Source of the DNA: Frankiaceae bacterium
GTDB taxonomy: Bacteria > Actinomycetota > Actinomycetes > BP-191
Length of the DNA stretch: 64,000 nucleotides
Direction of reading: 5' to 3'
Assembly (NCBI GenBank): GCA_035556555.1
Contig: DATMES010000022.1
Span: 7,577-71,576 of the forward strand
The first letter of the stretch is position 1; the number at the start of each line of letters is the position of its first letter. This document shows positions 8,969-62,967 of this stretch, one piece after another. Below the pieces are notes generated by a model. The model ran no database searches, was not told the origin of the DNA, and was given only the letters and a program-made list of their open reading frames with translations. The position numbers and the translations under genes were made by a program.

Positions 8969-9357
8969 TCCGCCGCGGGTCGCGCGCGCCGGCGCCCGGA
9001 CAGCAGCGGCGCCCCGGGGAACGACGACATCCGCGTTCCCACGTCGTCGATGACGCTCATGATCCGGCCGGTGGTGGCCGCGATCGCGGCGACCTGCTTC
9101 TGGGTGTCGTTGACGCCGACGACGATCGACTGGATCTCGTCGCCCTCCAGCGTGCGGGCCAGCTTCTCCAGTCCAGGCGCGAGCTCCCGCAGTGGCTGCT
9201 CCAGGTCGTCGAGAAGGCTGTCGAGGCGACGTACGACGCGCTGCGCGTCGATCGCCAGCTCCACGACCGCGCGGACCGCGTCGGGGACGGCGAGCAGCGC
9301 CTGGGTCTGCGTGTTGAGCAGGTCGACGACGTCGGACAGGCCGGGCAGCTTGGGCAT
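8965..9357 (-). CDS. Hypothetical protein (130 aa)
   Basis: ATG start; high GC3; no recognisable domain; convergent overlap with the upstream gene. Confidence 0.45.
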
Positions 9358-9445
9358 GGCGAGGAGCGTACGGCGTCCGGTAACATCTCTCCGCAAGAGG
9401 CCTCGGCACTTGCCGGGGTCTTTCGTTTTGTCCGGAGGAGCGCGT

Positions 9446-10729
9446 ATGCCCGCCGTCGTCATCGTCGGGGCACAGTGGGGAGACGAGGGGAAGGGCAAGG
9501 CCACCGACCTGCTCGGTGACCGGCTCGACTACGTCGTCCGCTACAACGGCGGCAACAACGCCGGCCACACCGTCGTCATCGGCAGCGAGAAGTACGCGCT
9601 GCACCTGCTCCCCACCGGCATCCTCACGCCGACGCTCGTGCCGGTCATCGGCAACGGCGTCGTCGTCGACCTCGGCGTCCTCTTCGAGGAGATCGACCTG
9701 CTGGACGCGCGCGGCGTCGACACCTCGCGGCTGCTCATCAGCGCCAACGCGCACGTCATCACGCCGTACCACCGCACCATGGACAAGGTGGTCGAGAGGT
9801 TCCTCGGCAACGCCAAGCTCGGCACCACCGGCCGCGGGATCGGGCCCGCGTACGCCGACAAGATGTCCCGCGTCGGGGTGCGGGTGCAGGACCTGTTCGA
9901 CGAGAAGATCCTGCGGCAGAAGGTCGACGGCGCGCTCAAGGCCAAGAACCAGCTGCTCACCAAGGTCTACAACCGCAAGGCCATCGAGACCGACGCGGTC
10001 GTGGACGAGCTGCTGACGTACGCCGACCGCCTCCAGCCGCTCGTCGCCGACACCGCCCTGCTGCTGCACCACGCGCTGCTCGACGGCAAGAACGTCCTGC
10101 TCGAAGGCGGCCAGGCCACCATGCTCGACGTCGACCACGGGACGTATCCGTTCGTCACGTCGTCCAACCCGACCACCGGCGGCGCCTGCACCGGCTCCGG
10201 CATCGCGCCGCGGCACCTCACGCGCGCGATCGGCGTGCTCAAGGCGTACACGACGCGGGTCGGCGAGGGGCCGTTCCCGACCGAGCTGAACGACGAGTGG
10301 GGCACGCTGCTGCGCGAGAACGGCGGCGAGTTCGGCACCACCACGGGGCGGCCACGTCGGTGCGGGTGGTTCGACGCCGTCATCGCCCGCTACGCCGCGC
10401 GCATCAACGGCCTCACCGACTTCTTCCTCACCAAGCTCGACGTGCTCTCCGGCATCGAGCGCATCCCCGTCTGCGTCGGCTACCGCGTCGGCGGCACGGT
10501 CTTCGACGAGATGCCGGTGTCGCAGTCGGACTTCCACCACGCCGAGCCGGTGTACGAAGAGCTCCCCGGCTGGGACGACGACATCACCGGCGCAACGACG
10601 TTCGAGGACCTGCCGAAGAACGCTCAGGCGTACGTCAAGGCGCTGGAGGAGATGTCCGGCGCGCCCATCAGCGCCATCGGCGTCGGCCCCGGCCGTACGC
10701 AGACGGTGGTCGTCAGGGACTTGGTCTAA
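9446..10729 (+). CDS. purA: Adenylosuccinate synthetase
   Basis: GGAGGAG RBS; N-terminal [10 protein letters not shown]-loop; full-length colinear PurA. Confidence 0.95.
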
Positions 10730-12102
10730 CCGAGGTACCCGCTCTTCCGGAGCGTGTCCTCCGCTGCCTCGGTGAGCGCCTCCAGCGCCGCGGCGATGAT
10801 CTCAGTGACGAGGGCGCTGATCTTGACGCGCGCCACTGTACGTAGCGTCGGCTCGACGTCGCGTACGGCGAACTCAGCTCGGCGACCCATCCCGGCGACG
10901 AGGAATGCGGGGCAGTCGTCGTCCGTGGCGATCAGCGTGACGATGCGGATCGCCCGCCGCGCGCCCGCGGGCGGATGCGACTCCGCGTTGATCTGAACGA
11001 TGCGGGGATCCGCAACAGACGACCGGTAGCCCGGCGCATCGAACCGTCCTTGACGGACGTCCACCGTGAGCGACACACCCACCGGTAGCGACAGCGCGGC
11101 TACCTGCTCGGACACTTCTGAGTGAACTGCGTCGAGCAGGCGGTTCGCCACGGCATCAAGCTGGTCGTGGCTGAGCCCGCCAACACCCGTGACGAGGTCC
11201 CTGAGTCGCGCCAACGACCCTGCCTGGTCAGCCTGCGCGCCGGCTCGGACCGTGAGGACAGCAAGATCCACGGTCTCGATGACGCGCTCGACAACGAACG
11301 AGACGAACCTGCGTAGGTCACCGGAGTCGGCGGCCGCTAGGCAGTCGAGGTACTCGTCGCGGTCCTCGCGCAGCAGCATGAACGGCACGCGCAGCGCGCG
11401 GTACAGCGGAACCGACGCGAGCGCGCGGGAGACGCGGCCGTTCCCGTCGGCGAACGGGTGGATCGCCACGAACGAGTAATGCAGGTACGCCGCCTGCACC
11501 ACCGGATGAGCGGCGAGATACGACTCCGACGACAGCGACGCCACGAGCCGCGCCATCTCCGGCGCGACCATGTCCGGCGGCGCGTAGTGGTGGATCTGAC
11601 CCGTCGCGAGACTGGTCGGGTTGTTGGGCAGCGTCTTGTACTGCCCCTTCGGTAGCGGCTGCTCCTGCGGCCCCACCTCGGTGTGTACGACGTACGTGTC
11701 CTGGCTGCGGCAGAGCATCACGTGGAGCTCGCGAATCACGTGCTCGGTGACCGGCCGCGACTCGGCCACGAGGTCGAGCACCCACTCGTACGCCTCGATC
11801 TGGTCCTTGATGATCGCCGCGGCGTTGGGGCCTCGCTCGTTCGCCGCCGCCTCCCAGCCCGCGGCCTCGATGGCGACGGTGCGGGTGAAGCCACGATCGG
11901 TCGTGTAGAGCCCTTCGATGGCTCCGGTGTCGGTGCCCGCGTACCGCATCGCCGTCTTCACGGCGTGCTCGCGCGCCTCCTCGGTCGCCTCGGCGCGAGC
12001 CTGTTCGAGGAGCGCGGCGTACTGGTCGTACGTCGTCGGGTCGAACGGCACCGCTGTCCACGCCGAGATGTCGGGGAACGGCTGGTATCCCTCGTCCGCC
12101 AC
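10726..12102 (-). CDS. Fic/DOC-family protein, class II (N-terminal inhibitory helix), with an uncharacterised ~200-aa C-terminal domain
   Basis: Canonical Fic motif [12 protein letters not shown]; N-terminal TGAIEG matches the (S/T)xxxE(G/N) alpha-inh motif; stop overlaps purA stop. Confidence 0.85.
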
Positions 12103-12436: not shown

Positions 12437-12483
12437 GGCTGGCTCCGTTCGGTAGGGAATGCCCGGACGTGGGCGATGGCAGG

Positions 12484-13722
12484 ATGCCGCCCGTGAGAGT
12501 TCTTGTCATCGGCAACGGCGCCCGCGAGCACGCCCTCTGCCTCGCCCTGCGCCGCGACCCCGCGGTACGCCACCTCGTCTGCGCCCCAGGCAACGCCGGC
12601 ACCGCGCAGGTCGCCGAGACCCGCCACGTCGATCCCCTCGACGGCGACGCCGTCGCCGACCTCGCCGACGCCGTGGACGCCGACCTCACGGTCATCGGCC
12701 CCGAGGCGCCGCTGGTCGCCGGCGTCGCGGATGCCGTACGCGCCCGCGGCCGCGCCTGCTTCGGCCCCTCCGCCGAGGCGGCCCAGCTGGAGGGCAGCAA
12801 GGCGTTCGCCAAGGACGTCATGGCGCGCGCCGGCGTCCCGACGGCGGGCTACGCCGTCTGCGAGACCGGCGACGAGGTGGAGGCCGCGCTGGACGAGTAC
12901 GAGCCGCCGTACGTCGTCAAGGACGACGGCCTGGCCGGCGGCAAGGGCGTCGTCGTCACCACGGACCGCGCCGCCGCCGCCGAGCACGCCCGCGGCAAGC
13001 GGGTCGTGATCGAGGAGTACCTGGACGGCCCCGAGGTGAGCCTGTTCGGTATCACGGATGGCACGACGGTGCTGCCGCTGCAGCCCGCGCAGGACTTCAA
13101 GCGCATCGGCGACGGCGACACCGGCCCGAACACCGGCGGCATGGGCGCCTACTCGCCGCTCCCCTGGGCCGACCCCGGCCTGACCGACGAGGTCACGAGA
13201 ACGGTCCTCCAGCCGACGATCGACGAGATGCGCCGCAGGGGAACGCCGTTCCAGGGCCTGCTCTACGCCGGTCTCGCGATCACGAAGAACGGCCCGAAGG
13301 TCATCGAGTTCAACGCCCGCTTCGGCGACCCCGAGACGCAGGTCGTCCTCGCCCGCCTGAAGACCCCGCTGGCGCAGCTGCTCCACCAGGCCGCCACCGG
13401 CAGCCTCGCAGGCACCACCCTGGACTGGGACGACCAGGCAGCCGTCACGGTCGTCATGGCCGCGCTCGGCTACCCGGGCAAGCCCACCACGGGCCAGCCG
13501 ATCGACGGGCTGACCGAAGCCGCCAAGGCAGCAGACGTCCTCCACGCCGGCACCCGCCTCGAGGACGGCAAGGTCCTCACGAACGGCGGCCGGGTCCTCT
13601 CGGTCACGGCCACGGGCTCCGACCTGAACACCGCAAGAACGAAGGCGTACGAGGCCGTCGGCCGGATCTCCTTCCCCGGCGCCCAGTGGCGCACGGACAT
13701 CGCGGCGACAGCCGCCGGTTAG
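12484..13722 (+). CDS. purD: Phosphoribosylamine-glycine ligase
   Basis: RVLVIGNGAREHAL N-terminus; ATP-grasp fold; colinear PurD. Confidence 0.95.
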   Translation: MPPVRVLVIGNGAREHALCLALRRDPAVRHLVCAPGNAGTAQVAETRHVDPLDGDAVADLADAVDADLTVIGPEAPLVAGVADAVRARGRACFGPSAEAAQLEGSKAFAKDVMARAGVPTAGYAVCETGDEVEAALDEYEPPYVVKDDGLAGGKGVVVTTDRAAAAEHARGKRVVIEEYLDGPEVSLFGITDGTTVLPLQPAQDFKRIGDGDTGPNTGGMGAYSPLPWADPGLTDEVTRTVLQPTIDEMRRRGTPFQGLLYAGLAITKNGPKVIEFNARFGDPETQVVLARLKTPLAQLLHQAATGSLAGTTLDWDDQAAVTVVMAALGYPGKPTTGQPIDGLTEAAKAADVLHAGTRLEDGKVLTNGGRVLSVTATGSDLNTARTKAYEAVGRISFPGAQWRTDIAATAAG

Positions 13723-51903: not shown

Positions 51904-52203
51904 TCAGGCCCCGAGCATCCGCGCCTCGACGGCGAGGTACTCGGCGGCGGCGCGCTCGTACAGCGCCTCGAAGTCCGGTCCGAGCCGATGCGCGCGCCGC
52001 CCGAACCGCAGGCGTACGACGCTCCCGCAGAGCAGCCGCGCCAGCCGCCACGGCACGCCCGGGTCGAAGTGGTCGGCCTCGTCCACGAAGACCACGACCT
52101 CGGCGCCGCGCGGCACGTCCACCACCGCGAGGTCGACGTCCCACTCGGTCAGCAGCCCGTCGCCGCGTACCGGGTCGAGGCGGACCTCGTACTCGGCGCT
52201 CAC
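51904..52203 (-). CDS. Hypothetical protein (about 100 aa) located immediately downstream of dnaB
   Basis: GTGA overlap with the dnaB stop; high GC3. Confidence 0.45.
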   Translation of the reverse strand: MSAEYEVRLDPVRGDGLLTEWDVDLAVVDVPRGAEVVVFVDEADHFDPGVPWRLARLLCGSVVRLRFGRRAHRLGPDFEALYERAAAEYLAVEARMLGA

Positions 52204-54791
52204 CCTGCGGGAGTCATGTCGATGAAGCGGGAGTAGTGGCCCTGGAACGCCACCGTGATCGTGCCCGTGGGGCCGTTGCGGTGCTTGGCGACGATGAAGT
52301 CGGCCTCGCCGGCGCGGGGCGACTCCTTCTCGAACGCATCCTCGCGGTACAGCAGGATCACCATGTCGGCGTCCTGCTCCAGCGAGCCCGACTCGCGCAG
52401 GTCGGACAGCTGCGGCTTCTTGTCGGTGCGGGACTCGGGGCCGCGGTTCAGCTGGCTGATCGCGACGACGGGGACCTCGAGCTCCTTGGCCAGCAGCTTC
52501 ATGGACCGGGAGATCTCGGAGACCTCCTGCTGTCGGTTCTCGACCTTGCGCGGCGAGCTCATGAGCTGCATGTAGTCGACGACGATCAGCTCGAGGTTCT
52601 GCCGCTGCTTGAGCCGCCGCGCCTTGGCGCGGATCTCCATCATCGTGAGGTTGGGGCTGTCGTCGATGAACAGCGGCGCGTTGGCGACCTCGCCCATCCG
52701 GCGCGCCAGCCGCGACCAGTCGTCGTCGGTCATGCGGCCGGTGCGCATGTTCTGCAGCGAGACCCGCGCCTCGGCGGAGAGCAGGCGCATGGTGATCTCG
52801 TGCTTGCTCATTTCGAGCGAGAAGATCACTGAGGTCTTGCCTGCCTTGATCGACGCCGCGCGGGAGAAGTCGAGCCCCAGCGTGGAGTTGTGCGTCGGGA
52901 TCATCGAACGCGTCGCGAGGTAGAGGTGCTCGTCGTTGCCGACCTCGACGCAACGCACGGGAACGCTCGGGATCGGTCGCACCGCGACGATGAGCCGCGA
53001 CCGGTTGCGCGCGTCGCCCTTGGCGCCGCGCCGGTCCTTGTGCACGAGCCGCTTGCGCTCCAGGCGGAACACGTCGTCGGAGGTCGTGAAGTTGAGGATG
53101 TACGCGATCGACGACTCCGGCGTACGGCCCCGCACGGCCTTGGTACACACCGAGACGCGATAGCCGAGGCTGGTGACGAGCTCGCGGACGTCCTCGGCCA
53201 GCCGGCGCGACGTGACGCAGAACTGCAGCTGCCCCCTCGGCGTCACGGTGCCGTCAGTGTCCATGAGCCCGGCGAGCAGCGCGCGCCGCTGTGCCTCCGA
53301 CGCGCGGAGGTACGCGGCCGGGATGTGCTTGGCACCGAGGACGCCGAGCGTGCGCAGGATGCCCTGCACGGTGCCGTGCGCGTCGTGGCACTCCTGGCAG
53401 CGCAGCAGACCGGTGGACGGACGGCCGCAGTCGGGGCAGGTCGGCGCGGGGACGGGAGCGGACACGAAGCGGGCACGGCCGCCGCAGGACTGCCCGCAGG
53501 TGCGGACGTGGGCGAGCGGGTTGACGAACTCGGTGCCGCAGACGGCGCAGGCGCGCGGCGCGGGCGGCGGCGGCTCGGGGAGCCGGATCGTGAACGTCAG
53601 GCCGTTCGACGCGCTCGGAACGACGCGGTATCCCTCGTCCTCCAGGTACAGCACCATCTCCGGATCGGCCGTCGTGATGCGCGCGGCGGCGGAGTGGCCG
53701 TCGCCGAGCCAGGCACCGAGGACGTACGGCGACAGGGGCAGGACGGCGGCGGGCAGGTCGAGCGGGGCGGCGTTGGGGACGGAGTGGTTGAGGCGCCGGT
53801 CCGCCGTCTCGCAGCGCAGGGTCGCGGCGATCTCCGCCGTGGTCCTGACCGAAGCCACAGCACGGCCGCTCGACCGTCGTGACGCGCGGGTGTCGGTGAG
53901 CCACTGGTGCTCGGCGTCGGCGACGACGACGGTGCCGTCGGCGAACTCCACCTCGTAGCACGACCGATCGGTCATGACCTCGGTCGCCGCGACGACGGGC
54001 GTCGGACGGCCCGAACGGTCGAGCAGCAGGTCGCCGACCGCGACCTCGCCCATCGTCGTCCACCCCGTGGGCGTGGGCAGCGGGGTGTCGAGCGCCAGCG
54101 CCTTGCCGATGGCGGGACGCGCGGCGACGATGACGAGCTGGCCGGGGTGGAGGCCGTTGGTCAGGGCGTCGAGGTCCTTGAAGCCCGTGGGAACGCCGTG
54201 CAGGTCGCCGTCGCGGGAACCGATCGCCTCGATCTCGTCCAGCGTCGGCTGCAGCAGGTCCTCGAGGCGGATGTAGTCCTCGGACGTACGCCGCTCGGTG
54301 ACGTCGAAGATCGCCTGCTGCGCCCGGTCGACGATGTCGTCGACCTCGCCGCCGCGGCCGCCGTAGCCGAGCTGGACGATCCGGGTGCCGGCCTCGACGA
54401 GGCGGCGCAGGATCGCCTGCTCGGCGACGATCTTGGCGTAGTAGCCGGCGCTGGCGGCGGTGGGGACGGCGGACGCGAGGTCGATGAGGTACGTCGCCCC
54501 GCCGATCCGCCCGATCTCCCCCGTGCGGGTGAGCTCGGCGGCGACGGTGATCTGGTCGACGGGCTCGCCGCGGCCGTAGAGGTCGACGGCGGCCTCGTAG
54601 ATGACCTGGTGCGCGGGCCGGTAGAAGTCGCCGGGGCGGAGCACCTCGACGACGTCGGCGATGGCGTCCTTGGACAGCAGCATCCCGCCGAGCACGCTCT
54701 GCTCGGCCTCGATGTTCTGCGGCGGCGTGCGGTCGAACTCACGATGCTCGACGGGCGGCGCTGCGCGCTGCGGGAACTCGACTGCGGTCAC
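52200..54791 (-). CDS. dnaB: Replicative DNA helicase DnaB, interrupted by an intein in the Walker A motif
   Basis: N-terminus aligns with actinobacterial DnaB (QNIEAEQSVLGGMLLSKDAIADV); Walker A is split as AARPAIGK|[intein]|STLGLDF. Confidence 0.9.
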   Translation of the reverse strand: MTAVEFPQRAAPPVEHREFDRTPPQNIEAEQSVLGGMLLSKDAIADVVEVLRPGDFYRPAHQVIYEAAVDLYGRGEPVDQITVAAELTRTGEIGRIGGATYLIDLASAVPTAASAGYYAKIVAEQAILRRLVEAGTRIVQLGYGGRGGEVDDIVDRAQQAIFDVTERRTSEDYIRLEDLLQPTLDEIEAIGSRDGDLHGVPTGFKDLDALTNGLHPGQLVIVAARPAIGKALALDTPLPTPTGWTTMGEVAVGDLLLDRSGRPTPVVAATEVMTDRSCYEVEFADGTVVVADAEHQWLTDTRASRRSSGRAVASVRTTAEIAATLRCETADRRLNHSVPNAAPLDLPAAVLPLSPYVLGAWLGDGHSAAARITTADPEMVLYLEDEGYRVVPSASNGLTFTIRLPEPPPPAPRACAVCGTEFVNPLAHVRTCGQSCGGRARFVSAPVPAPTCPDCGRPSTGLLRCQECHDAHGTVQGILRTLGVLGAKHIPAAYLRASEAQRRALLAGLMDTDGTVTPRGQLQFCVTSRRLAEDVRELVTSLGYRVSVCTKAVRGRTPESSIAYILNFTTSDDVFRLERKRLVHKDRRGAKGDARNRSRLIVAVRPIPSVPVRCVEVGNDEHLYLATRSMIPTHNSTLGLDFSRAASIKAGKTSVIFSLEMSKHEITMRLLSAEARVSLQNMRTGRMTDDDWSRLARRMGEVANAPLFIDDSPNLTMMEIRAKARRLKQRQNLELIVVDYMQLMSSPRKVENRQQEVSEISRSMKLLAKELEVPVVAISQLNRGPESRTDKKPQLSDLRESGSLEQDADMVILLYREDAFEKESPRAGEADFIVAKHRNGPTGTITVAFQGHYSRFIDMTPAG
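52887..54101 (-). mobile_element. DnaB P-loop intein, class 3-like (N-terminal Ala, internal Trp and Cys, C-terminal THN) with a LAGLIDADG homing endonuclease domain and a Cys-rich insert
   Basis: Begins ALALDTP and ends SMIPTHN, followed by extein Ser; LGAWLGDGH and LLAGLMDTDG motifs; block F VRCVEV; boundaries are approximate. Confidence 0.8.
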
Positions 54792-55197
54792 TCGGGCGGA
54801 TCCGTTTCGGGTGGGTGAGCCGAGCATCGGAGGGGGGTGTGACAGAAAGTTATCCACAGGTAGTGAACAGGCTGTGGATGGGGGCTCGGGGCCAAAGGGG
54901 ACGCTAGGCGACCAGCCGACGCGACGTAACCCACGCACCCGAACCCGCCCTGTGCACAGCCGGTGAACGTCGCGGCGTGGCGTTGTGGACGGGCTGGGGA
55001 CGAACGCGGGGAACGACCGCCGCTGAGCACGAATCCGTCCACACGGGGTGTGCGCAAAGAAACGTGCGGGGTGTGTGGAACGCCGGTCGCGCACTCGCGC
55101 GTGTCGCCTTACCTAACGCGCCTCACCCGGTGCGGAGACGCCGAACGGCCCGGTGCCGCGCGGGCGCGGGCCGGGCCGTTCGGTGGATAACCAACTG
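54792..55197. promoter_or_regulatory. rplI-dnaB intergenic region with a cluster of DnaA-box-like 9-mers and the dnaB 5' leader
   Basis: TTATCCACA (54850-54858), TGTGGATGG, TTGTGGACG, CGTCCACAC, GTGGATAAC (55183-55191), plus the palindrome TGTGCACA. Confidence 0.4.
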
Positions 55198-57113: not shown

Positions 57114-57863
57114 CTACGGCGACGGCGGGGCGCTGGCGAGCAGCGCGCGCAGCTCGGCCGAGCCGACGCCGCCGATGAGCAGCAGCGCGAGCATGACCGG
57201 CAGGCCCTTCTCGCGGCCGGTGGCCGGCTGCGGCGTCAGCCCGCCCGCCCCGAGGAACGTCTCCTTCGGCGTCTCGGGGTCCGGCGCGACGCTGGGCAGC
57301 AGCGGCGTCGAGGTCGCCGACGGCGGCGCCACGGAGCCGCTGGGGATGGCCGGGGACGCGGTGCCCGAGGACGGGGTCGGCGACGGCGTCTCCGACACGG
57401 TCTCCGACGGGCGCGGCGAGGAGGTCGCGGTCCGCGTGGTCGTCGGGCGCGGCGACGACGTCCTGGTCTTCGTCGGCGACGGCTTGACCGTCCCCTCGAC
57501 GATGACGGTGCCCTTCATGCCGACGTCCTCGTGCGTGGTGCAGACGTAGCGGTACGTCCCCGCGCGCGAGAACGTCGCCTCCGTCGTGAAGTTCAGCAGC
57601 GCGGGCGGGCCGACGGGGTCGCTCTTGTCCCAGTTGGCGCTGGACGACGTGACGTTGTGACCCGAGCCACCGGCGTACTGCCACGTCACGGTGTCGCCGG
57701 GCTTGATGCGCACGGTCGCGGGGGTGAAGCGGTTCTCGTTGTTCTGGCCGACCGCGACCGTCTGGTCCTCCGCGGTGGCCGGCGTCATGAACGCGGGCAC
57801 GACGAGGAACGCCGACGCGCCGAGGGCGGCGACGGCGCGCAGGACGCGGAACGCGGGGCGCAC
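57114..57863 (-). CDS. Secreted/membrane-anchored cupredoxin (type-1 blue copper) protein with a PT-rich linker and C-terminal TM anchor
   Basis: Signal peptide; copper ligands GHNV...YVCTTHEDVGM (His, Cys, His, Met). Confidence 0.7.
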   Translation of the reverse strand: MRPAFRVLRAVAALGASAFLVVPAFMTPATAEDQTVAVGQNNENRFTPATVRIKPGDTVTWQYAGGSGHNVTSSSANWDKSDPVGPPALLNFTTEATFSRAGTYRYVCTTHEDVGMKGTVIVEGTVKPSPTKTRTSSPRPTTTRTATSSPRPSETVSETPSPTPSSGTASPAIPSGSVAPPSATSTPLLPSVAPDPETPKETFLGAGGLTPQPATGREKGLPVMLALLLIGGVGSAELRALLASAPPSP

Positions 57864-57919
57864 CGATCCAGTGTCGCACCCGGGCTGGCAGGGTGTCCGC
57901 CCAAGGCGTACAAACCTGG

Positions 57920-59426
57920 CATGGCCGAGAACGCGCGCGAGCTCCGCATGCTCATCGACGGCGAGCTGACCGGCGCCGCCGACGGGCGGACGTACGAGTC
58001 GATCAACCCGTCCACCGGCGAGGTCTCCTGCGTCGTCCCCGACGCGGGCACGGAGGACGTCGAGCGCGCGCTCGCGGCGGCGCGGAAGGCGTTCGACACG
58101 AGCGACTGGGCCACGCAGGGGCGGGAGAGCCGCGTCCGCACGGTGAAGGCGTTCGTCGAGGGGATCACCGCGCGGCTGCCGGAGTTCATCGAGTACGAGG
58201 TCGCCGACGCCGGCCACACGAGCCGCCTGGCCAACCTCTTCACGGTGCCGCTCGCGGTGGAGCACAGCAGGCAGGCGATAGAGCTGTACGAGCAGCGCCG
58301 CGACGTCGAGCCGCTGCCGCAGATCACGACGCCGGCGCTGTCGGCCAACTACGTCCGCCGCGAGCCGGTCGGCGTCTGCTCGCTCATCAGCCCGTTCAAC
58401 TTCCCGATCCTCATCGCGATGTGGAAGGTCGCGCCGGCGCTGGTCACCGGCTGCACGGCCGTGCTCAAGCCGAGCCCGCTGACGCCGGCGACGGCGCTGC
58501 TGCTCGGCGAGGTCGCGGCCGAGCTGCTGCCGCCCGGCGTCCTCAACGTCGTCACGCCGAGCGGCATCGGCCCCGCGGAGGTGCTGACGACGAGCCCGCT
58601 GCCGGACAAGGTGTCGTTCACCGGGTCGACCGACACAGGGCGAAGGATCATGCGCGGCGCGGCGGACACGTTGAAGGACCTGACGCTGGAGCTCGGCGGC
58701 AAGGGGCCGGCGATCTTCCTCGACGACGTGGACCTCGAGGCGGCGGTGCCGGGGGCGCTGTTCGGCTTCCTCATGCACCAGGGGCAGGCCTGCGAGTCCA
58801 CGACGCGGCTGCTCGTGCCGCGACGCCGGTACGACGAGACGCTCGAGGCGCTGAAGGCCGCGACGGAGGCGCTCGTGGTCGGGCCGGCCGACGACTTCGG
58901 GTCCGACCTCGGGCCGCTCATCTCCGCGGGCCAGCTCGACCGCGTGCAGCGGTACGTCAAGCTCGGCCTCGACCAGGGCGCGCGCCTGCTCACGGGCGGC
59001 GAGCCGATCGAGATCGGCGGCGGGTTCTTCCACCAGCCGACGATCTTCGCGGACGCCACCAACGACATGACGATCGCCCAGGAGGAGATCTTCGGGCCCG
59101 TGCTGACGGTGATCCCGTACGACACCGAGGGCGAGGCCGTCGCGATCGCCAACGACACCGTCTTCGGCCTGTCGGCGTCGGTCTGGTCGCGCGACGTGCC
59201 GCGCGCGGCGGGCGTCGCGCACCGCGTCCGCGCCGGCACCGTCTGGATCAACGACGTGCACCTGCTCAACGGGTACGCGCCGTTCGGCGGCTACAAGCAG
59301 TCCGGCGTCGGCCGCGAGCTCGGCCCGCAGGTGCTGGACGCGTACCTCGAGACGAAGCACGTGCACGTCGACCTGTCGCCGTCGCTGGCGCAGAAGTACT
59401 GGTACGGCACCATCGGGCTCGGCTAG
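57920..59426 (+). CDS. NAD(P)-dependent aldehyde dehydrogenase
   Basis: ALDH Glu and Cys active-site motifs: LELGGKGP and FLMHQGQACESTTR. Confidence 0.9.
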
Positions 59427-60526
59427 TCCACGACCACCTTGTGGGTCTCGGTGGCCCACTGGCGGTCCTCGCCGTCGCAGCCTGTCGAGGAGAAGGTCAG
59501 CGTGACCGTGCGCGCGCCCGCCGAGGCGTACTCGTGCGCCGCCTCGTCGGCGAACCTCGTGTTGGGGTAGCGCGCGCCGTCGCCGTCGTCGCACTCGCGG
59601 CTCCCGCGGAACCGCTCGGGCTCGGAGCCGTCGCCCCAGTCGACGAGGACGGACGAGACGTAGCCGTCGGTGTCGCGCAGCGTCCACTCCAGCGTGACCG
59701 TCCGGTAGAACTCGTCGTCGCCATAGAGGTGGCCGACGTGGTCGGCGAACGGCGAGGCGGGGCCGTTGGAGACGACCTTGCCCGGGCGGATCTCGATGGG
59801 AAGGCGGACCGTCTGGCGCTCCTGCTCGACGCCCTCGTCGCAGTAGTCAAACGAGACGACGGTGACGAGCACGGTGTACGTCCCCGGGTTGCGCCAGGCG
59901 TGGGTGAACGACTCGCGCAGCGACCCTGGGTCCTTCTCGTCGGGGCCGTCGGACGGCACGCAGGAGCCGCCGGCGCTGACGGCGCCCTTGGGCTCGCCCT
60001 CGCCCCAGTCGATCACCGGCATCGCGGGCTGGCCGTCGTCGTCCTCGGCCTCGACGGTGAGCGTCACCGACGTCGCCGTGGGCGCGCCGCCCTTCGCCAG
60101 CGTCGCGACGACGCGCAGGCCGCTCTCGCCACCGGCCGACCCGGTGACTGGGCCGGGGTCGGTCGGTGACGGCGTCGCCGGCGGCGCGGTCGTGGCCGTC
60201 GGCTGGTCGCTCGGCGGCGGCGCGCCGGTCCGGGTCGAGTACGGCGTCGGGACGCTCGTCGGGCTCGTGGTCGGCACCAGCTCCTCGGACGGCGTCGCGC
60301 TGGGCGTGTCGACGGCGAGGACGCCGACGGTGCTCTTGTCGCCGCGGTCGAGCGTCGCGACGCCGGTGCCGGCGATCGCGGCGGCGAGGACAGCCGTACC
60401 CGCGATCATCGTCTGGCGGGCACGCTGCCTGCGGGCCATCCGCGCCCCGAGACCAGCGCGCGGGTCGAGGTCGGGCGTGGCCGCGGCGTACGCGGACAGG
60501 GCGCGGCGGACGTCGTCGTCACTCAT
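59423..60526 (-). CDS. ECF-sigma-associated membrane protein with extracytoplasmic PKD-like repeats (putative anti-sigma factor)
   Basis: 8-nt overlap with the upstream ECF sigma stop; short cytoplasmic N-terminus, one TM, PT linker; IDWGEGEP and VDWGDGSEP PKD-like motifs. Confidence 0.6.
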   Translation of the reverse strand: MSDDDVRRALSAYAAATPDLDPRAGLGARMARRQRARQTMIAGTAVLAAAIAGTGVATLDRGDKSTVGVLAVDTPSATPSEELVPTTSPTSVPTPYSTRTGAPPPSDQPTATTAPPATPSPTDPGPVTGSAGGESGLRVVATLAKGGAPTATSVTLTVEAEDDDGQPAMPVIDWGEGEPKGAVSAGGSCVPSDGPDEKDPGSLRESFTHAWRNPGTYTVLVTVVSFDYCDEGVEQERQTVRLPIEIRPGKVVSNGPASPFADHVGHLYGDDEFYRTVTLEWTLRDTDGYVSSVLVDWGDGSEPERFRGSRECDDGDGARYPNTRFADEAAHEYASAGARTVTLTFSSTGCDGEDRQWATETHKVVVD

Positions 60527-61016
60527 GAGCCAGGTCTCCAATGGGAAGCGCGGCGCGCAGCGTCGCGAGCGCGCGGGACGTCGTGCTCTTCACGGTGCCG
60601 ACGGAGCAGCCCATGGCTCGCGCGACCTCGGTCTCGGGCAGGTCCTCGTAGAACCGCAGGACCACCGTGGCGCGCTGGCGGGGCGTGAGCGTGGCGAGCG
60701 CGCGGCCGATCTGGTCGCGCTGGTGCACGGCGTCGTACGCGTCGGCCGCCGCCGGCTCCGGCAGCTCGCCGGTGGGCACCTCGGCGCGCCAGCGCCGCCG
60801 CCACCACGCGACGGACGTCGACGCCATGACGCTGCGGACGTACGCCGGTGCCGACCCCTCGTCGCGCAGGGTGGGCCAGCGCGACCAGGTCTTCACGAGC
60901 GCGGTCTGCAGGAGGTCGTGCGCGAGGTGGGCGTCACCGGTCAGCAGAAATGCCGTCCGCAGCAACGCCCTGCCGTGCGCGTCGACCATGGCGTCGAACG
61001 CCTCCCGCCGTGCCAC
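60519..61016 (-). CDS. ECF (group IV) RNA polymerase sigma factor, copy 1
   Basis: Region 2 (LLQTALVKTW) and region 4 (VVLRFYEDLPETEVARAMGCSVGTVKS); GGAGGGGG RBS before the GTG. Confidence 0.85.
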   Translation of the reverse strand: MARREAFDAMVDAHGRALLRTAFLLTGDAHLAHDLLQTALVKTWSRWPTLRDEGSAPAYVRSVMASTSVAWWRRRWRAEVPTGELPEPAAADAYDAVHQRDQIGRALATLTPRQRATVVLRFYEDLPETEVARAMGCSVGTVKSTTSRALATLRAALPIGDLAHE

Positions 61017-61127
61017 CTGTGTAGCCCCCTCCGTCACCGGCTTCGATGCCCCAGGGTGGCGGAAAGGTTGTGAGCACGTGCGAACGCCCCCGCCGGGGGG
61101 GTGGCAGGGGCGTTCGCGGCTCGCGTA

Positions 61128-62189
61128 CTAGACGGTGATCGTGAGGGTGATGCTCTTGGTCTGGCCCTGGCCGGCGTCGCAGTTCACCGACATCACGGTG
61201 ACCGTGACGGTGTACGTGCCCGGCTCGGCGTAGGAGCGGCCCGCGCCGGTGTTCCACTGGGAGCCCTGGCCGTCGACGCAGGAGTCGAGCGAGCGCGGGC
61301 CGACGTACGACTCCGGCGAGCCGTCGCCCCAGTCGATGTAGAACTTCTTCACGAACCCGTCCGCGTCGGCGCCGGACAGCGAGATCCCGGTCGCGGTCTG
61401 CTTCGCGGAGACCGTCGGCTGCGCGGGGCCGTTGCCGGTCCCCTCGGCGATGACCTTGACGCTCGTCGAGACCGACTTCGTCTCGGTCTCCGCGCCGCAG
61501 CCACCGGTCGTGACCGTCGCCTTGCCGGTGTACGTCCCGGCCTTGGCGTACGTGTGCGAGAAGAACTGCTTGACGCTGGTGCCGTAGCCGCAGGCCTCGC
61601 TCGGCTCGTACACCTTCGACTGCCCGTCGCCGAACTGCACCTCGATCCGCAGCAGGCGGCCCGCGCCGTCGTACGCCTTGACCTTCCAGTCCATCGACTG
61701 GCCGGCGACGGCGTCGGTGTACGGCCAGAACTCGACCTGCAGCGGGTCGCCGGTGACCGTCGGCTTGGACTCCGTCGGCTTCGGCTCGTCCGGGTCCTTC
61801 GTGTACGTCGGCTCGGGCTTGTCCGGCTCGTCGTACGTCGGCTTCGGCTCGTCGGGCGCGTACGTCGGCTTCGGCTTCTCCGTCTTCTTCGCCGTGGGCT
61901 TCGGCTTCGGCGTCGTCGTCGGGTCCGCCTTGGGCGTCTTGACCGCGACCGGCTTGGGGCTCTTCGTCGGCTCCACGATGAGCGAGTCGGATCCGGCGGG
62001 CGTCGTGCTGATGACCTGCGTCGCGCCGAACGCGACCGACGCGACGAGGAACGCCGAGAGCGTGGCCTGCGTGGCGACGCGGCGGCGGGTGTGCACTCGT
62101 TCGATGCGCCTCATGACTGCTCCCCTTCGACCGATGGTGGTGGGGGGCGTGCCTACGAGGTCGTCGAGTGCCCTGCGGATGTCGTTCAC
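61128..62189 (-). CDS. ECF-sigma-associated membrane protein with PKD-like repeats (putative anti-sigma factor), paralog 2
   Basis: GTGA overlap with the sigma stop; same architecture as copy 1; VQFGDGQSK and IDWGDGSPES motifs. Confidence 0.6.
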   Translation of the reverse strand: MNDIRRALDDLVGTPPTTIGRRGAVMRRIERVHTRRRVATQATLSAFLVASVAFGATQVISTTPAGSDSLIVEPTKSPKPVAVKTPKADPTTTPKPKPTAKKTEKPKPTYAPDEPKPTYDEPDKPEPTYTKDPDEPKPTESKPTVTGDPLQVEFWPYTDAVAGQSMDWKVKAYDGAGRLLRIEVQFGDGQSKVYEPSEACGYGTSVKQFFSHTYAKAGTYTGKATVTTGGCGAETETKSVSTSVKVIAEGTGNGPAQPTVSAKQTATGISLSGADADGFVKKFYIDWGDGSPESYVGPRSLDSCVDGQGSQWNTGAGRSYAEPGTYTVTVTVMSVNCDAGQGQTKSITLTITV

Positions 62190-62731
62190 GCCGGCTGCTC
62201 CCTTCGCTCCACGCCCCGCTGGACGGGCAGGACGGAGGCGCCGGGGACGTCCCCGACGAGGCCACGGAGCCGGACGAGCGCCCGCGACGCGGTGCTCTTG
62301 ACGGTCCCGACGCTGCACCCGAGGAGCGATGCGACCTGCGCCTCCGAGAGGTCCTCGTAGAACCGGAGGACCACGATGGCGCGCTGGCGGGGCGGCAGCT
62401 CCGCGAGCGCGCGGCGGAGAGCGTGCCGCGAGTCGACGTCGGCGTACGCGTCGCGAGCGGGGACGTCGGGGAGCTCACCCGTCGCCAGCTCGCCACGCCA
62501 CTTCCGGCGCCACCACGTGGCGTACGTGCGCGCCATGACCTGACGCACGTACGACTCCGCGGCGTCCTTGTCGCGCAGCCTGTCCCACCGGAACCAGGTC
62601 TTGACCAGTGCCGTCTGCAGCAGGTCCTCGGCCAGTCCCCAGTCGCCCGTGAGCAGGTACGCCGTCCGCAGCAGGCTCGCGGCACGGACGTCGACCAGAG
62701 CGTCGAACGCCTCCCGGTCTTCCGTGTCCAC
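62186..62731 (-). CDS. ECF (group IV) RNA polymerase sigma factor, copy 2 (paralog of 60519-61016)
   Basis: REAFDALVD...LLRTAYLLTGD...LLQTALVKTW; strong GGAGAGAGAGGAGGG RBS. Confidence 0.85.
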   Translation of the reverse strand: MDTEDREAFDALVDVRAASLLRTAYLLTGDWGLAEDLLQTALVKTWFRWDRLRDKDAAESYVRQVMARTYATWWRRKWRGELATGELPDVPARDAYADVDSRHALRRALAELPPRQRAIVVLRFYEDLSEAQVASLLGCSVGTVKSTASRALVRLRGLVGDVPGASVLPVQRGVERREQPA

Positions 62732-62967
62732 GAGCCCTCCTCTCTCTCCGTTGGCGTCTAGGACTACCTGGGTACGTGGTTAGGTTGAGCCGTCGTCACT
62801 CTCAGTGATCGGGTATTTCTGAGGACGGGTCGTACGCCCGTCCGGGCTACTCCGGTCGTGGCGCGCGGCTCTTCGTGATCTTGGCCGCATCCGTGTCGCC
62901 CGGGCAGCACAGACGCAACCAAGATCACGTCCATCGGAACGTCGGGCGCGTCGTTAGGCTGGGCAGC

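Follow-up and report, generated by a model that had tools for sequence, protein, structure and literature searches.

Two paralogous ECF sigma factor modules with PKD-domain membrane partners, putative anti-sigma factors, in a conserved tandem array of a Frankiaceae genome

A stretch of 64,000 nucleotides (the window) from contig DATMES010000022.1, part of the metagenome-assembled genome (MAG) 'Frankiaceae bacterium', contains four minus-strand genes at 59423-62731 that form two pairs, each made up of a sigma factor of the extracytoplasmic function (ECF) type and a membrane protein encoded directly downstream, here called its partner. The window is actinobacterial chromosome of about 70% GC. 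We consider it likely that the pairs are two independent, anciently paralogous modules in a tandem array, each composed of a sigma factor and its membrane-bound anti-sigma factor, the function of the latter being putative. The segment proposed to bind the sigma factor is the short cytoplasmic N-terminus of the partner, and the comparison of related loci given below points to this segment, and not to the conspicuous ectodomain, as the part that is linked to the sigma factor.

The upstream pair consists of sigma2 (62186..62731, 181 aa) and partner2 (61128..62189, 353 aa). The downstream pair consists of sigma1 (60519..61037; 172 aa from the GTG at 61037, 165 aa from the GTG at 61016) and partner1 (59423..60526, 367 aa). 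Both partners are putative single-pass anti-sigma factors. An initial annotation, made from the letters of this DNA, had described two paralogous sigma/partner pairs here, and every feature that it listed for them is present. The GTG start of partner2 and the TGA stop of sigma2 share the sequence GTGA, an overlap of 4 nt, and the ATG of partner1 lies inside sigma1, with an overlap of 8 nt. Such overlaps had been read as a sign of translational coupling, a reading that gains from related loci, where 49 of 78 partners overlap the sigma gene by exactly 4 nt. The gene structure indicates that the sigma factor and partner of each pair are made together through translational coupling.

Both sigma factors match Sigma70_r2 and Sigma70_r4_2 of Pfam, and no other domain was found in them. 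Proteins with the sigma2 and sigma4 domains only, with no sigma3 or sigma1.1 and fewer than about 200 aa, are ECF (group 4) sigma factors, and both proteins are of this kind, as first supposed. Against NCBIfam TIGR02983, the SigE family, sigma2 scores 206 bits and sigma1 192.4 bits, over the curated cut-off of 141.55; both are therefore members of the SigE family of ECF sigma factors. They are 64% identical over 159 aa (E 6e-68), and the sequence motifs originally quoted as common to them are found in both. Part of this is on record already, since sigma2 (HWL36015.1) carries the NCBI name 'SigE family RNA polymerase sigma factor' and one of the partners the name 'PKD domain-containing protein'.

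Two public-record start-codon calls are corrected here. The GenBank record of partner2 (HWL36014.1, 328 aa) begins at an internal ATG and lacks a conserved N-terminus of 25 residues (62114-62189), and the corresponding record of locus L001 has the same mis-call. The 25 upstream codons are conserved in homologs of 47-68% identity, which places the start of partner2 at the GTG at 62189. For sigma1, the GTG at 61016 is more likely than that at 61037: it is preceded by the Shine-Dalgarno sequence GGAGG (61032-61028), and the resulting length fits that of the orthologs, 163-165 aa. In addition, since the promoter motif described below predicts a transcription start at about 61036, the GTG at 61037 would be without a leader.

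The C-terminal parts of the two partners align at 32% identity over some 170 residues (E 7e-16), and the comparisons put the identity of the partners at about 25-32%. The features first ascribed to them are all there: a DxRRAL motif near a short N-terminus, a single hydrophobic helix, a Pro/Thr/Lys-rich linker, and FGDG and DWGDG motifs. AlphaFold2 (AF2) models, built on alignments of 31-32 rows, give both proteins the same architecture. It opens with a short helix, at residues 2-12 of partner2 and 3-16 of partner1. After a turn comes a long one, at residues 21-54 and 22-53, respectively, of which the membrane span is part, and then follow a disordered Pro-rich linker and two beta-sandwiches per partner with a predicted local distance difference test score (pLDDT) above 90. 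In partner2, the cytoplasmic segment, the proposed sigma-binding element, comprises aa 1-38 (62076..62189), where helix 2-12 is followed by a conserved PP loop and by a helix that starts at residue 21 and passes into the membrane helix. The latter spans about aa 39-62 (62004..62075) and has RRR just before it. The Pro/Lys/Thr-rich disordered linker takes up aa 63-148 (61746..62003; pLDDT below 50), and the ectodomain (61131..61745) consists of two beta-sandwiches of PKD fold (aa 151-247 and 259-352), each of which contains a conserved pair of Cys residues. In partner1, also on the minus strand, aa 1-37 (60416-60526) make up the cytoplasmic N-terminus, the membrane helix lies at about aa 38-58, the linker extends to about aa 125, and the PKD-fold domains are at aa 127-247 and 260-366. 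Because of the RRR run before the helix, the positive-inside rule predicts an N-in, single-pass topology for both.

The standard used here for a PKD fold is a beta-sandwich of the Ig-like kind, about 80-90 aa in size, which can be superposed on PKD domains of solved structure. In Pfam, partner2 scores 38.7 bits with PKD_4 (cut-off 27) and 31.1 bits with PKD (cut-off 23.5), while partner1 scores 29.2 bits with PKD (PF00801), above 23.5, and 25.7 bits with PKD_4 (PF18911), just under 27. The partner profile also matches PKD domains in the PDB at the sequence level. The assignment, made at first from repeated motifs, holds for both partners by Pfam gathering threshold and, in the models, by fold, with two confidently predicted domains in each; it thus survives structure prediction, which the initial annotation had named as a way to refute it. 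Every PKD-fold domain has an invariant Cys pair plus DxDG, DWGDG and NGPxxP signatures. The DNA of the partner2 linker contains a tandem repeat at 61773-61906 (unit of 27-30 nt, 4.5 copies, 75% matches) that encodes peptides of the (D/E)EPKPTY type. Given this repeat and the variable lengths of the linkers, the stalk probably changes in length by repeat expansion. The full double-PKD partner was found in this lineage and in one 'uncultured Frankiaceae' genome (L007) only, with a single-domain relative in L004. A scan of metagenome contigs with alignment A5 gave just three short loci.

Are the partners non-canonical anti-sigma factors, or are they sigma-associated surface proteins? Both options had been offered initially, and the comparative evidence favors the first and disfavors the second. 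The comparison set consists of 80 loci of named genomes (Kribbella, Streptomyces, Micromonospora, Nonomuraea, Nocardioides, Lentzea and others) whose sigma factors are 49-63% identical to sigma2. At 78 of these loci, the product of the following gene has a short N-terminus and a single hydrophobic helix, which starts at a median residue of 39. A motif of the [DE]..LR..L type is found in 74 of the 78 related partners, and a run of RRR precedes the helix in 69. The ectodomains, on the other hand, are unrelated: PKD domains occur in only 4 of 77, and all the others are without any Pfam match. Therefore, the constant part beside this clade of sigma factors is the short N-terminus with its membrane anchor, not the ectodomain.

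The reverse case is also found. In a full HMMER scan over 1.84 billion representatives, the partner profile hit 356 clusters at E <= 1e-30, some of which have no cytoplasmic segment and only a short signal-anchor. Among double-PKD relatives that lack the N-terminal segment, none of the three whose DNA was inspected (P0123, P0117 and P0107; loci L092, L093 and L094/L095) has a sigma gene upstream; what lies there is a minus-strand gene in one case, ligA in another and a PD40/Tricorn-like gene in the third. One of these stand-alone proteins is translationally coupled to a PD40/Tricorn_N beta-propeller protein, which we record as a separate observation.

Conservation within the partners points the same way. 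Trees described below place window pair 2 in module clade A and window pair 1 in module clade B. Among the orthologs of each clade, the cytoplasmic segment is the best conserved region of the protein, with a mean pairwise identity of 0.68 for clade A and 0.66 for clade B; the corresponding values are 0.59/0.60 and 0.42/0.42 for the PKD domains and about 0.3 for the linker (0.29 in partner2). Seventeen of the first 38 residues are invariant in clade A. Between the two paralogous clades, the identity of the segment is only 0.29. High identity within clades together with low identity between them is what would be expected of a specific protein-binding surface that has co-diverged with its sigma factor, and the pattern is not that of the n-region of a signal peptide.

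How do the segments compare with known anti-sigma domains? Class I domains (ASD/ZAS; RsrA, RslA, RseA) are cytoplasmic helical bundles about 80-90 aa long, and many contain an HxxxCxxC zinc motif. The cytoplasmic parts of the partners have only 37-38 aa and no Cys or His motif, and searches of the partners gave no zf-HC2 or RskA-type Pfam match at E values up to 1. With class II (CnrY/NepR-like) domains, there is agreement in length and in the two predicted helices, and no sequence similarity. Class II anti-sigma factors such as CnrY work through a two-helix cytoplasmic domain of 45 aa (PMC6851896), and ECF classification 2.0 describes putative, mostly single-helix anti-sigma factors with a cytoplasmic profile common to the ECF222/ECF51/ECF38/ECF39 clade (PMC7826278). 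From these two precedents and from the 78 of 80 loci, it follows that the short N-terminus is normal for this sigma clade and compatible with a known mechanism. The initial annotation was thus correct in calling the segment shorter than a canonical anti-sigma domain, but this is no oddity of the present genes; it is the rule for the whole sigma clade. A putative anti-sigma factor of the SigE clade can be recognized as a protein encoded directly downstream of the sigma factor that combines a single membrane helix with a short, conserved cytoplasmic region at its N-terminus, and both partners answer to this description in architecture and motif pattern.

Upstream of each sigma gene there is an ECF-type promoter-like motif on the minus strand: CAACCT-N16-AGTCCT at 62760..62787 for sigma2, and CAACCTTT-N14-GCATCGA at 61043..61070 for sigma1. 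The sigma2 motif is conserved at the same position in L001 and L002, the clade A -10 element being (A/C)GTCC. In clade B, the -10 element is CATC(G/A), and the motif lies upstream of all six clade B sigma genes examined. The motif precedes every clade A and clade B sigma gene except the clade A copy of L089, where the pattern was not found. The strict pattern, itself defined post hoc, has only three hits in the 64 kb, and the motifs of sigma2 and sigma1 account for two of them. In the wider comparison, [GC]AACC is present in 59 of 77 regions upstream of related sigma genes, against a background of 27%, often in the form GCAACC-N16-18-CGT(C/T), and the window motif is similar to the AAC/CGTC of Streptomyces coelicolor sigma-E promoters (PMC6767563).

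Between the pairs, directly past the partner2 stop, a GC-rich hairpin with a 15-bp stem and no U tract (61080..61117, minus strand) has a predicted dG of -36.2 kcal/mol (z -5.33), and none of 200 shuffled sequences folds as well. A hairpin occupies the same place in L001 and L002, and that of the window is likely a terminator or an insulator between the pairs. Given the conserved upstream motifs and the hairpin between the pairs, each pair is probably a separate autoregulated operon. A scan for sigma-70 promoters gave nothing, and the two terminator-like sites that it returned are inside coding sequence and have weak stems.

We propose the following mechanism. The partner would be inserted in the membrane with its N-terminus in the cytoplasm, where the segment of 37-38 residues would clamp the cognate sigma factor away from RNA polymerase; its first helix is short and amphipathic, and a turn with Pro leads to the second, which runs on into the membrane helix. 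The disordered Pro-rich stalk would hold two disulfide-capable PKD-fold domains in the cell envelope as a sensor. An envelope cue at these domains would then release the sigma factor, either through regulated proteolysis of the partner or through a conformational change, and the free sigma factor would transcribe from AAC...(C/A)(G/A)TC promoters, including that of its own operon, which would amount to positive autoregulation. Because the N-termini have co-diverged and the -10 motifs differ, modules A and B probably act as separate channels.

Several points weigh against this interpretation. Pfam and NCBIfam searches of the partners match no anti-sigma family. The best-studied member of the family, S. 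coelicolor sigma-E, has no anti-sigma factor and is under two-component control (PMC6767563); therefore, membership in the SigE family does not by itself imply an anti-sigma factor. The strict promoter pattern was built after the fact from few sequences, and further conserved sites of this kind, which would mark regulon members, were sought in the 10-15 kb flanks of six loci and none was found. Finally, the PKD ligand and the mechanism of sigma release are at this point a matter of pure inference.

Of the competing explanations, the one that fares best takes the partner as nothing more than cargo of the sigma factor, i.e., a surface or secreted double-PKD protein whose N-terminus is a signal anchor or a Tat/Sec-type signal with no regulatory role. 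In its favor, the RRR(V/A), hydrophobic and AxGA-like stretch of both partners resembles a twin-arginine signal, the same ectodomain exists in stand-alone, signal-anchored proteins away from sigma genes, and known anti-sigma families are not matched. The n-regions of signal peptides are usually poorly conserved, however, whereas aa 1-38, with their invariant positions, are the most conserved part of the partner. The stand-alone relatives lack precisely this segment, and the partners of nearly all related sigma factors have it regardless of their ectodomain. Furthermore, the hydrophobic stretch has the length of a membrane helix, and in the AF2 models it forms one continuous helix with the cytoplasmic one. 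We therefore regard the cargo explanation as unlikely and favor a non-canonical anti-sigma factor over a mere surface protein, as far as the sequences can decide.

It is still less probable, in our judgment, that the partner is a co-sensor or a positive factor, with sigma activity set mainly by transcription, in the manner of sigma-E/CseABC, or by a regulator encoded elsewhere. The precedent of S. coelicolor sigma-E, in the same NCBIfam family and without an anti-sigma factor (PMC6767563), speaks for it, as do some ECF39 subgroups that are listed with two-component systems and no anti-sigma factor (PMC7826278). Yet two-component system genes are absent from the conserved slot in six of six loci, and the tight translational coupling and one-to-one co-duplication better suit a stoichiometric binder. 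The same classification that lists those ECF39 subgroups (PMC7826278) counts the single-helix proteins encoded at position +1 in this clade as putative anti-sigma factors. Membrane-bound anti-sigma factors thus remain our preferred reading of both partners.

The history of the array bears on how the two modules came to stand side by side. Its chromosomal slot is fixed: nfo (AP_endonuc_2) lies on one side and the aldehyde dehydrogenase gene, a cupredoxin gene, rpsF-ssb-rpsR-rplI and dnaB on the other. In independent assemblies, this slot holds one pair (L087), two pairs (the window, L001, L089 and L091) or three (L002). Neighbor-joining trees of the sigma factors and of the partners agree and give three module clades, of which clade C is absent from the window; the order of the clades is invariably A-B-C, with differential loss. 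On the evidence of these trees, the modules were duplicated as units of sigma factor and partner, together with the promoter, long before the divergence of these genomes. Since the pairs fall in old, separately conserved clades, the duplication must be ancient. The initial claim of a tandem duplication thus stands insofar as the pairs are paralogous, but the event was not recent, and the window carries an old paralogous array that varies from one to three copies. The MAG origin of the window invites the thought that an assembly artefact, or a segmental duplication of recent date, produced the second pair. This is hardly credible and is rejected, since identity is only 64% between the sigma factors and about 25-32% between the partners, independent assemblies of other samples (L001 and L089) contain both pairs in the order seen here, and each pair has its own clade of orthologs.

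Among known systems, the closest is the SigE-family clade of ECF222, ECF51, ECF38 and ECF39 (Casas-Pastor et al. 2021, PMC7826278), with which the window modules have in common the sigma family, a partner, encoded directly downstream, that has a single membrane helix and a short, conserved cytoplasmic part, and an AAC/CGTC-type promoter. They differ from it in the ectodomain, a lineage-restricted double PKD, and in the tandem array of one to three copies at a fixed chromosomal slot. According to the literature, an 'anti-ECF38' derived from S. coelicolor works in Escherichia coli, reported with no sequence or domain detail; ECF38 is accordingly a lead only.

The CnrH-CnrY system of Cupriavidus metallidurans (ECF20) offers a likeness of design. 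CnrY is a single-pass protein whose cytoplasmic domain of about 45 aa has two helices (PMC6851896), much shorter than a canonical anti-sigma domain, and AF2 gives two N-terminal helices in both window partners. There is no detectable sequence similarity, however, gene order is different, and the sigma groups are unrelated. CnrY is also nearly devoid of an ectodomain and leaves sensing to another protein, CnrX, whereas the window partners carry the proposed sensor domain in the same protein. S. coelicolor sigma-E with CseA/CseB/CseC resembles the window sigma factors in NCBIfam family, in promoters with AAC at -35 and (CG)TC at -10 (PMC6767563) and in an envelope-related role. It is unlike them in having transcriptional control by a two-component system in place of an anti-sigma factor, while each window sigma factor is coupled to a membrane partner and is free of two-component genes in its vicinity.

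A further parallel is sigma-BldN/RsbN of Streptomyces venezuelae (PDB 6dxo), again an actinobacterial ECF sigma factor with a single-pass anti-sigma factor unrelated to the canonical domain. The sequence match of sigma-BldN is weak (E 4.2e-6), and a PDB profile search with the partner alignment gave no anti-sigma chain, RsbN included, among the matches listed. The cytoplasmic domain of RsbN is roughly twice as long as the segment of the window partners, and RsbN has no PKD ectodomain. As for the ectodomain itself, the PKD domains of the secreted bacterial proteases ColH (4u7k), PrtV (4l9d) and an M14 peptidase (4xed) have the same fold and similar WDFGDG-like and HxY...GxY motifs. The window domains differ from these by an inserted loop with the conserved Cys pair and by being joined to a membrane anchor and a sigma-linked N-terminus, not to an enzyme.

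By these comparisons, the array is of an ordinary actinobacterial design, an ECF sigma factor with a putative anti-sigma factor, partly annotated in GenBank already, and no new kind of system. What is specific here is the uncommon PKD-type ectodomain, the conserved array of one to three copies, and the evidence, from a natural 'domain-swap', for the N-terminal segment as the part linked to the sigma factor. That this short segment, and not the ectodomain, travels with SigE-family sigma factors backs a still unproven anti-sigma assignment for a very large number of actinobacterial 'hypothetical proteins'. It is tempting to go further, and we do so only tentatively, in a conjecture that may well turn out to be wrong. 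The two-helix N-terminus of SigE-family partners, 37-38 residues long, might be a minimal anti-sigma module, structurally uncharacterised, with the capacity to combine with ectodomains of any kind. In the present lineage, it might have become fused to a double-PKD envelope protein that had stood alone, and copies of the fusion might then have built up an A-B-C array, fixed in order, of mutually insulated channels, each with its own co-diverged sigma-binding segment and -10 specificity (GTCC versus CATC). Being tractable, the array lends itself to the question of how cross-talk is avoided among paralogous ECF modules, and its co-diverged sets of sigma factor, partner and promoter could yield small orthogonal sigma/anti-sigma parts for high-GC hosts.

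Some observations on the neighborhood remain. The partner1 gene converges on the plus-strand aldehyde dehydrogenase gene, which ends at 59426, and the two stop codons overlap by 4 nt (59423-59426); an intergenic terminator is therefore impossible there. No Rfam family was matched within 59-64 kb. Past nfo, loci L001, L002, L087, L089 and L091 all have conserved envelope-related genes, for an Amidase_2 cell-wall hydrolase (409-445 aa) and GT87/GT2 glycosyltransferases, in front of which the sigma-type promoter motif was not found. On the other side, the minus-strand gene at 57114-57900, adjoining the aldehyde dehydrogenase gene, encodes a cupredoxin/plastocyanin-like protein whose C-terminal region is long and rich in Pro, Ser and Thr and which has a hydrophobic tail, and this arrangement of the two genes is kept in all syntenic loci. 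The window dnaB (52200-55094, minus strand, 964 aa) has a LAGLIDADG_3 match at aa 602-674, upstream of the better-scoring of two DnaB_C stretches (aa 737-958), which suggests that it contains an intein; the same feature is present in L087, and the dnaB of L091 is intein-less. Farther away, a minus-strand gene at 10726-12102 encodes a Fic/DOC-domain protein of 458 aa and lies between purA (9050-10729) and purD (12469-13722), both on the plus strand.

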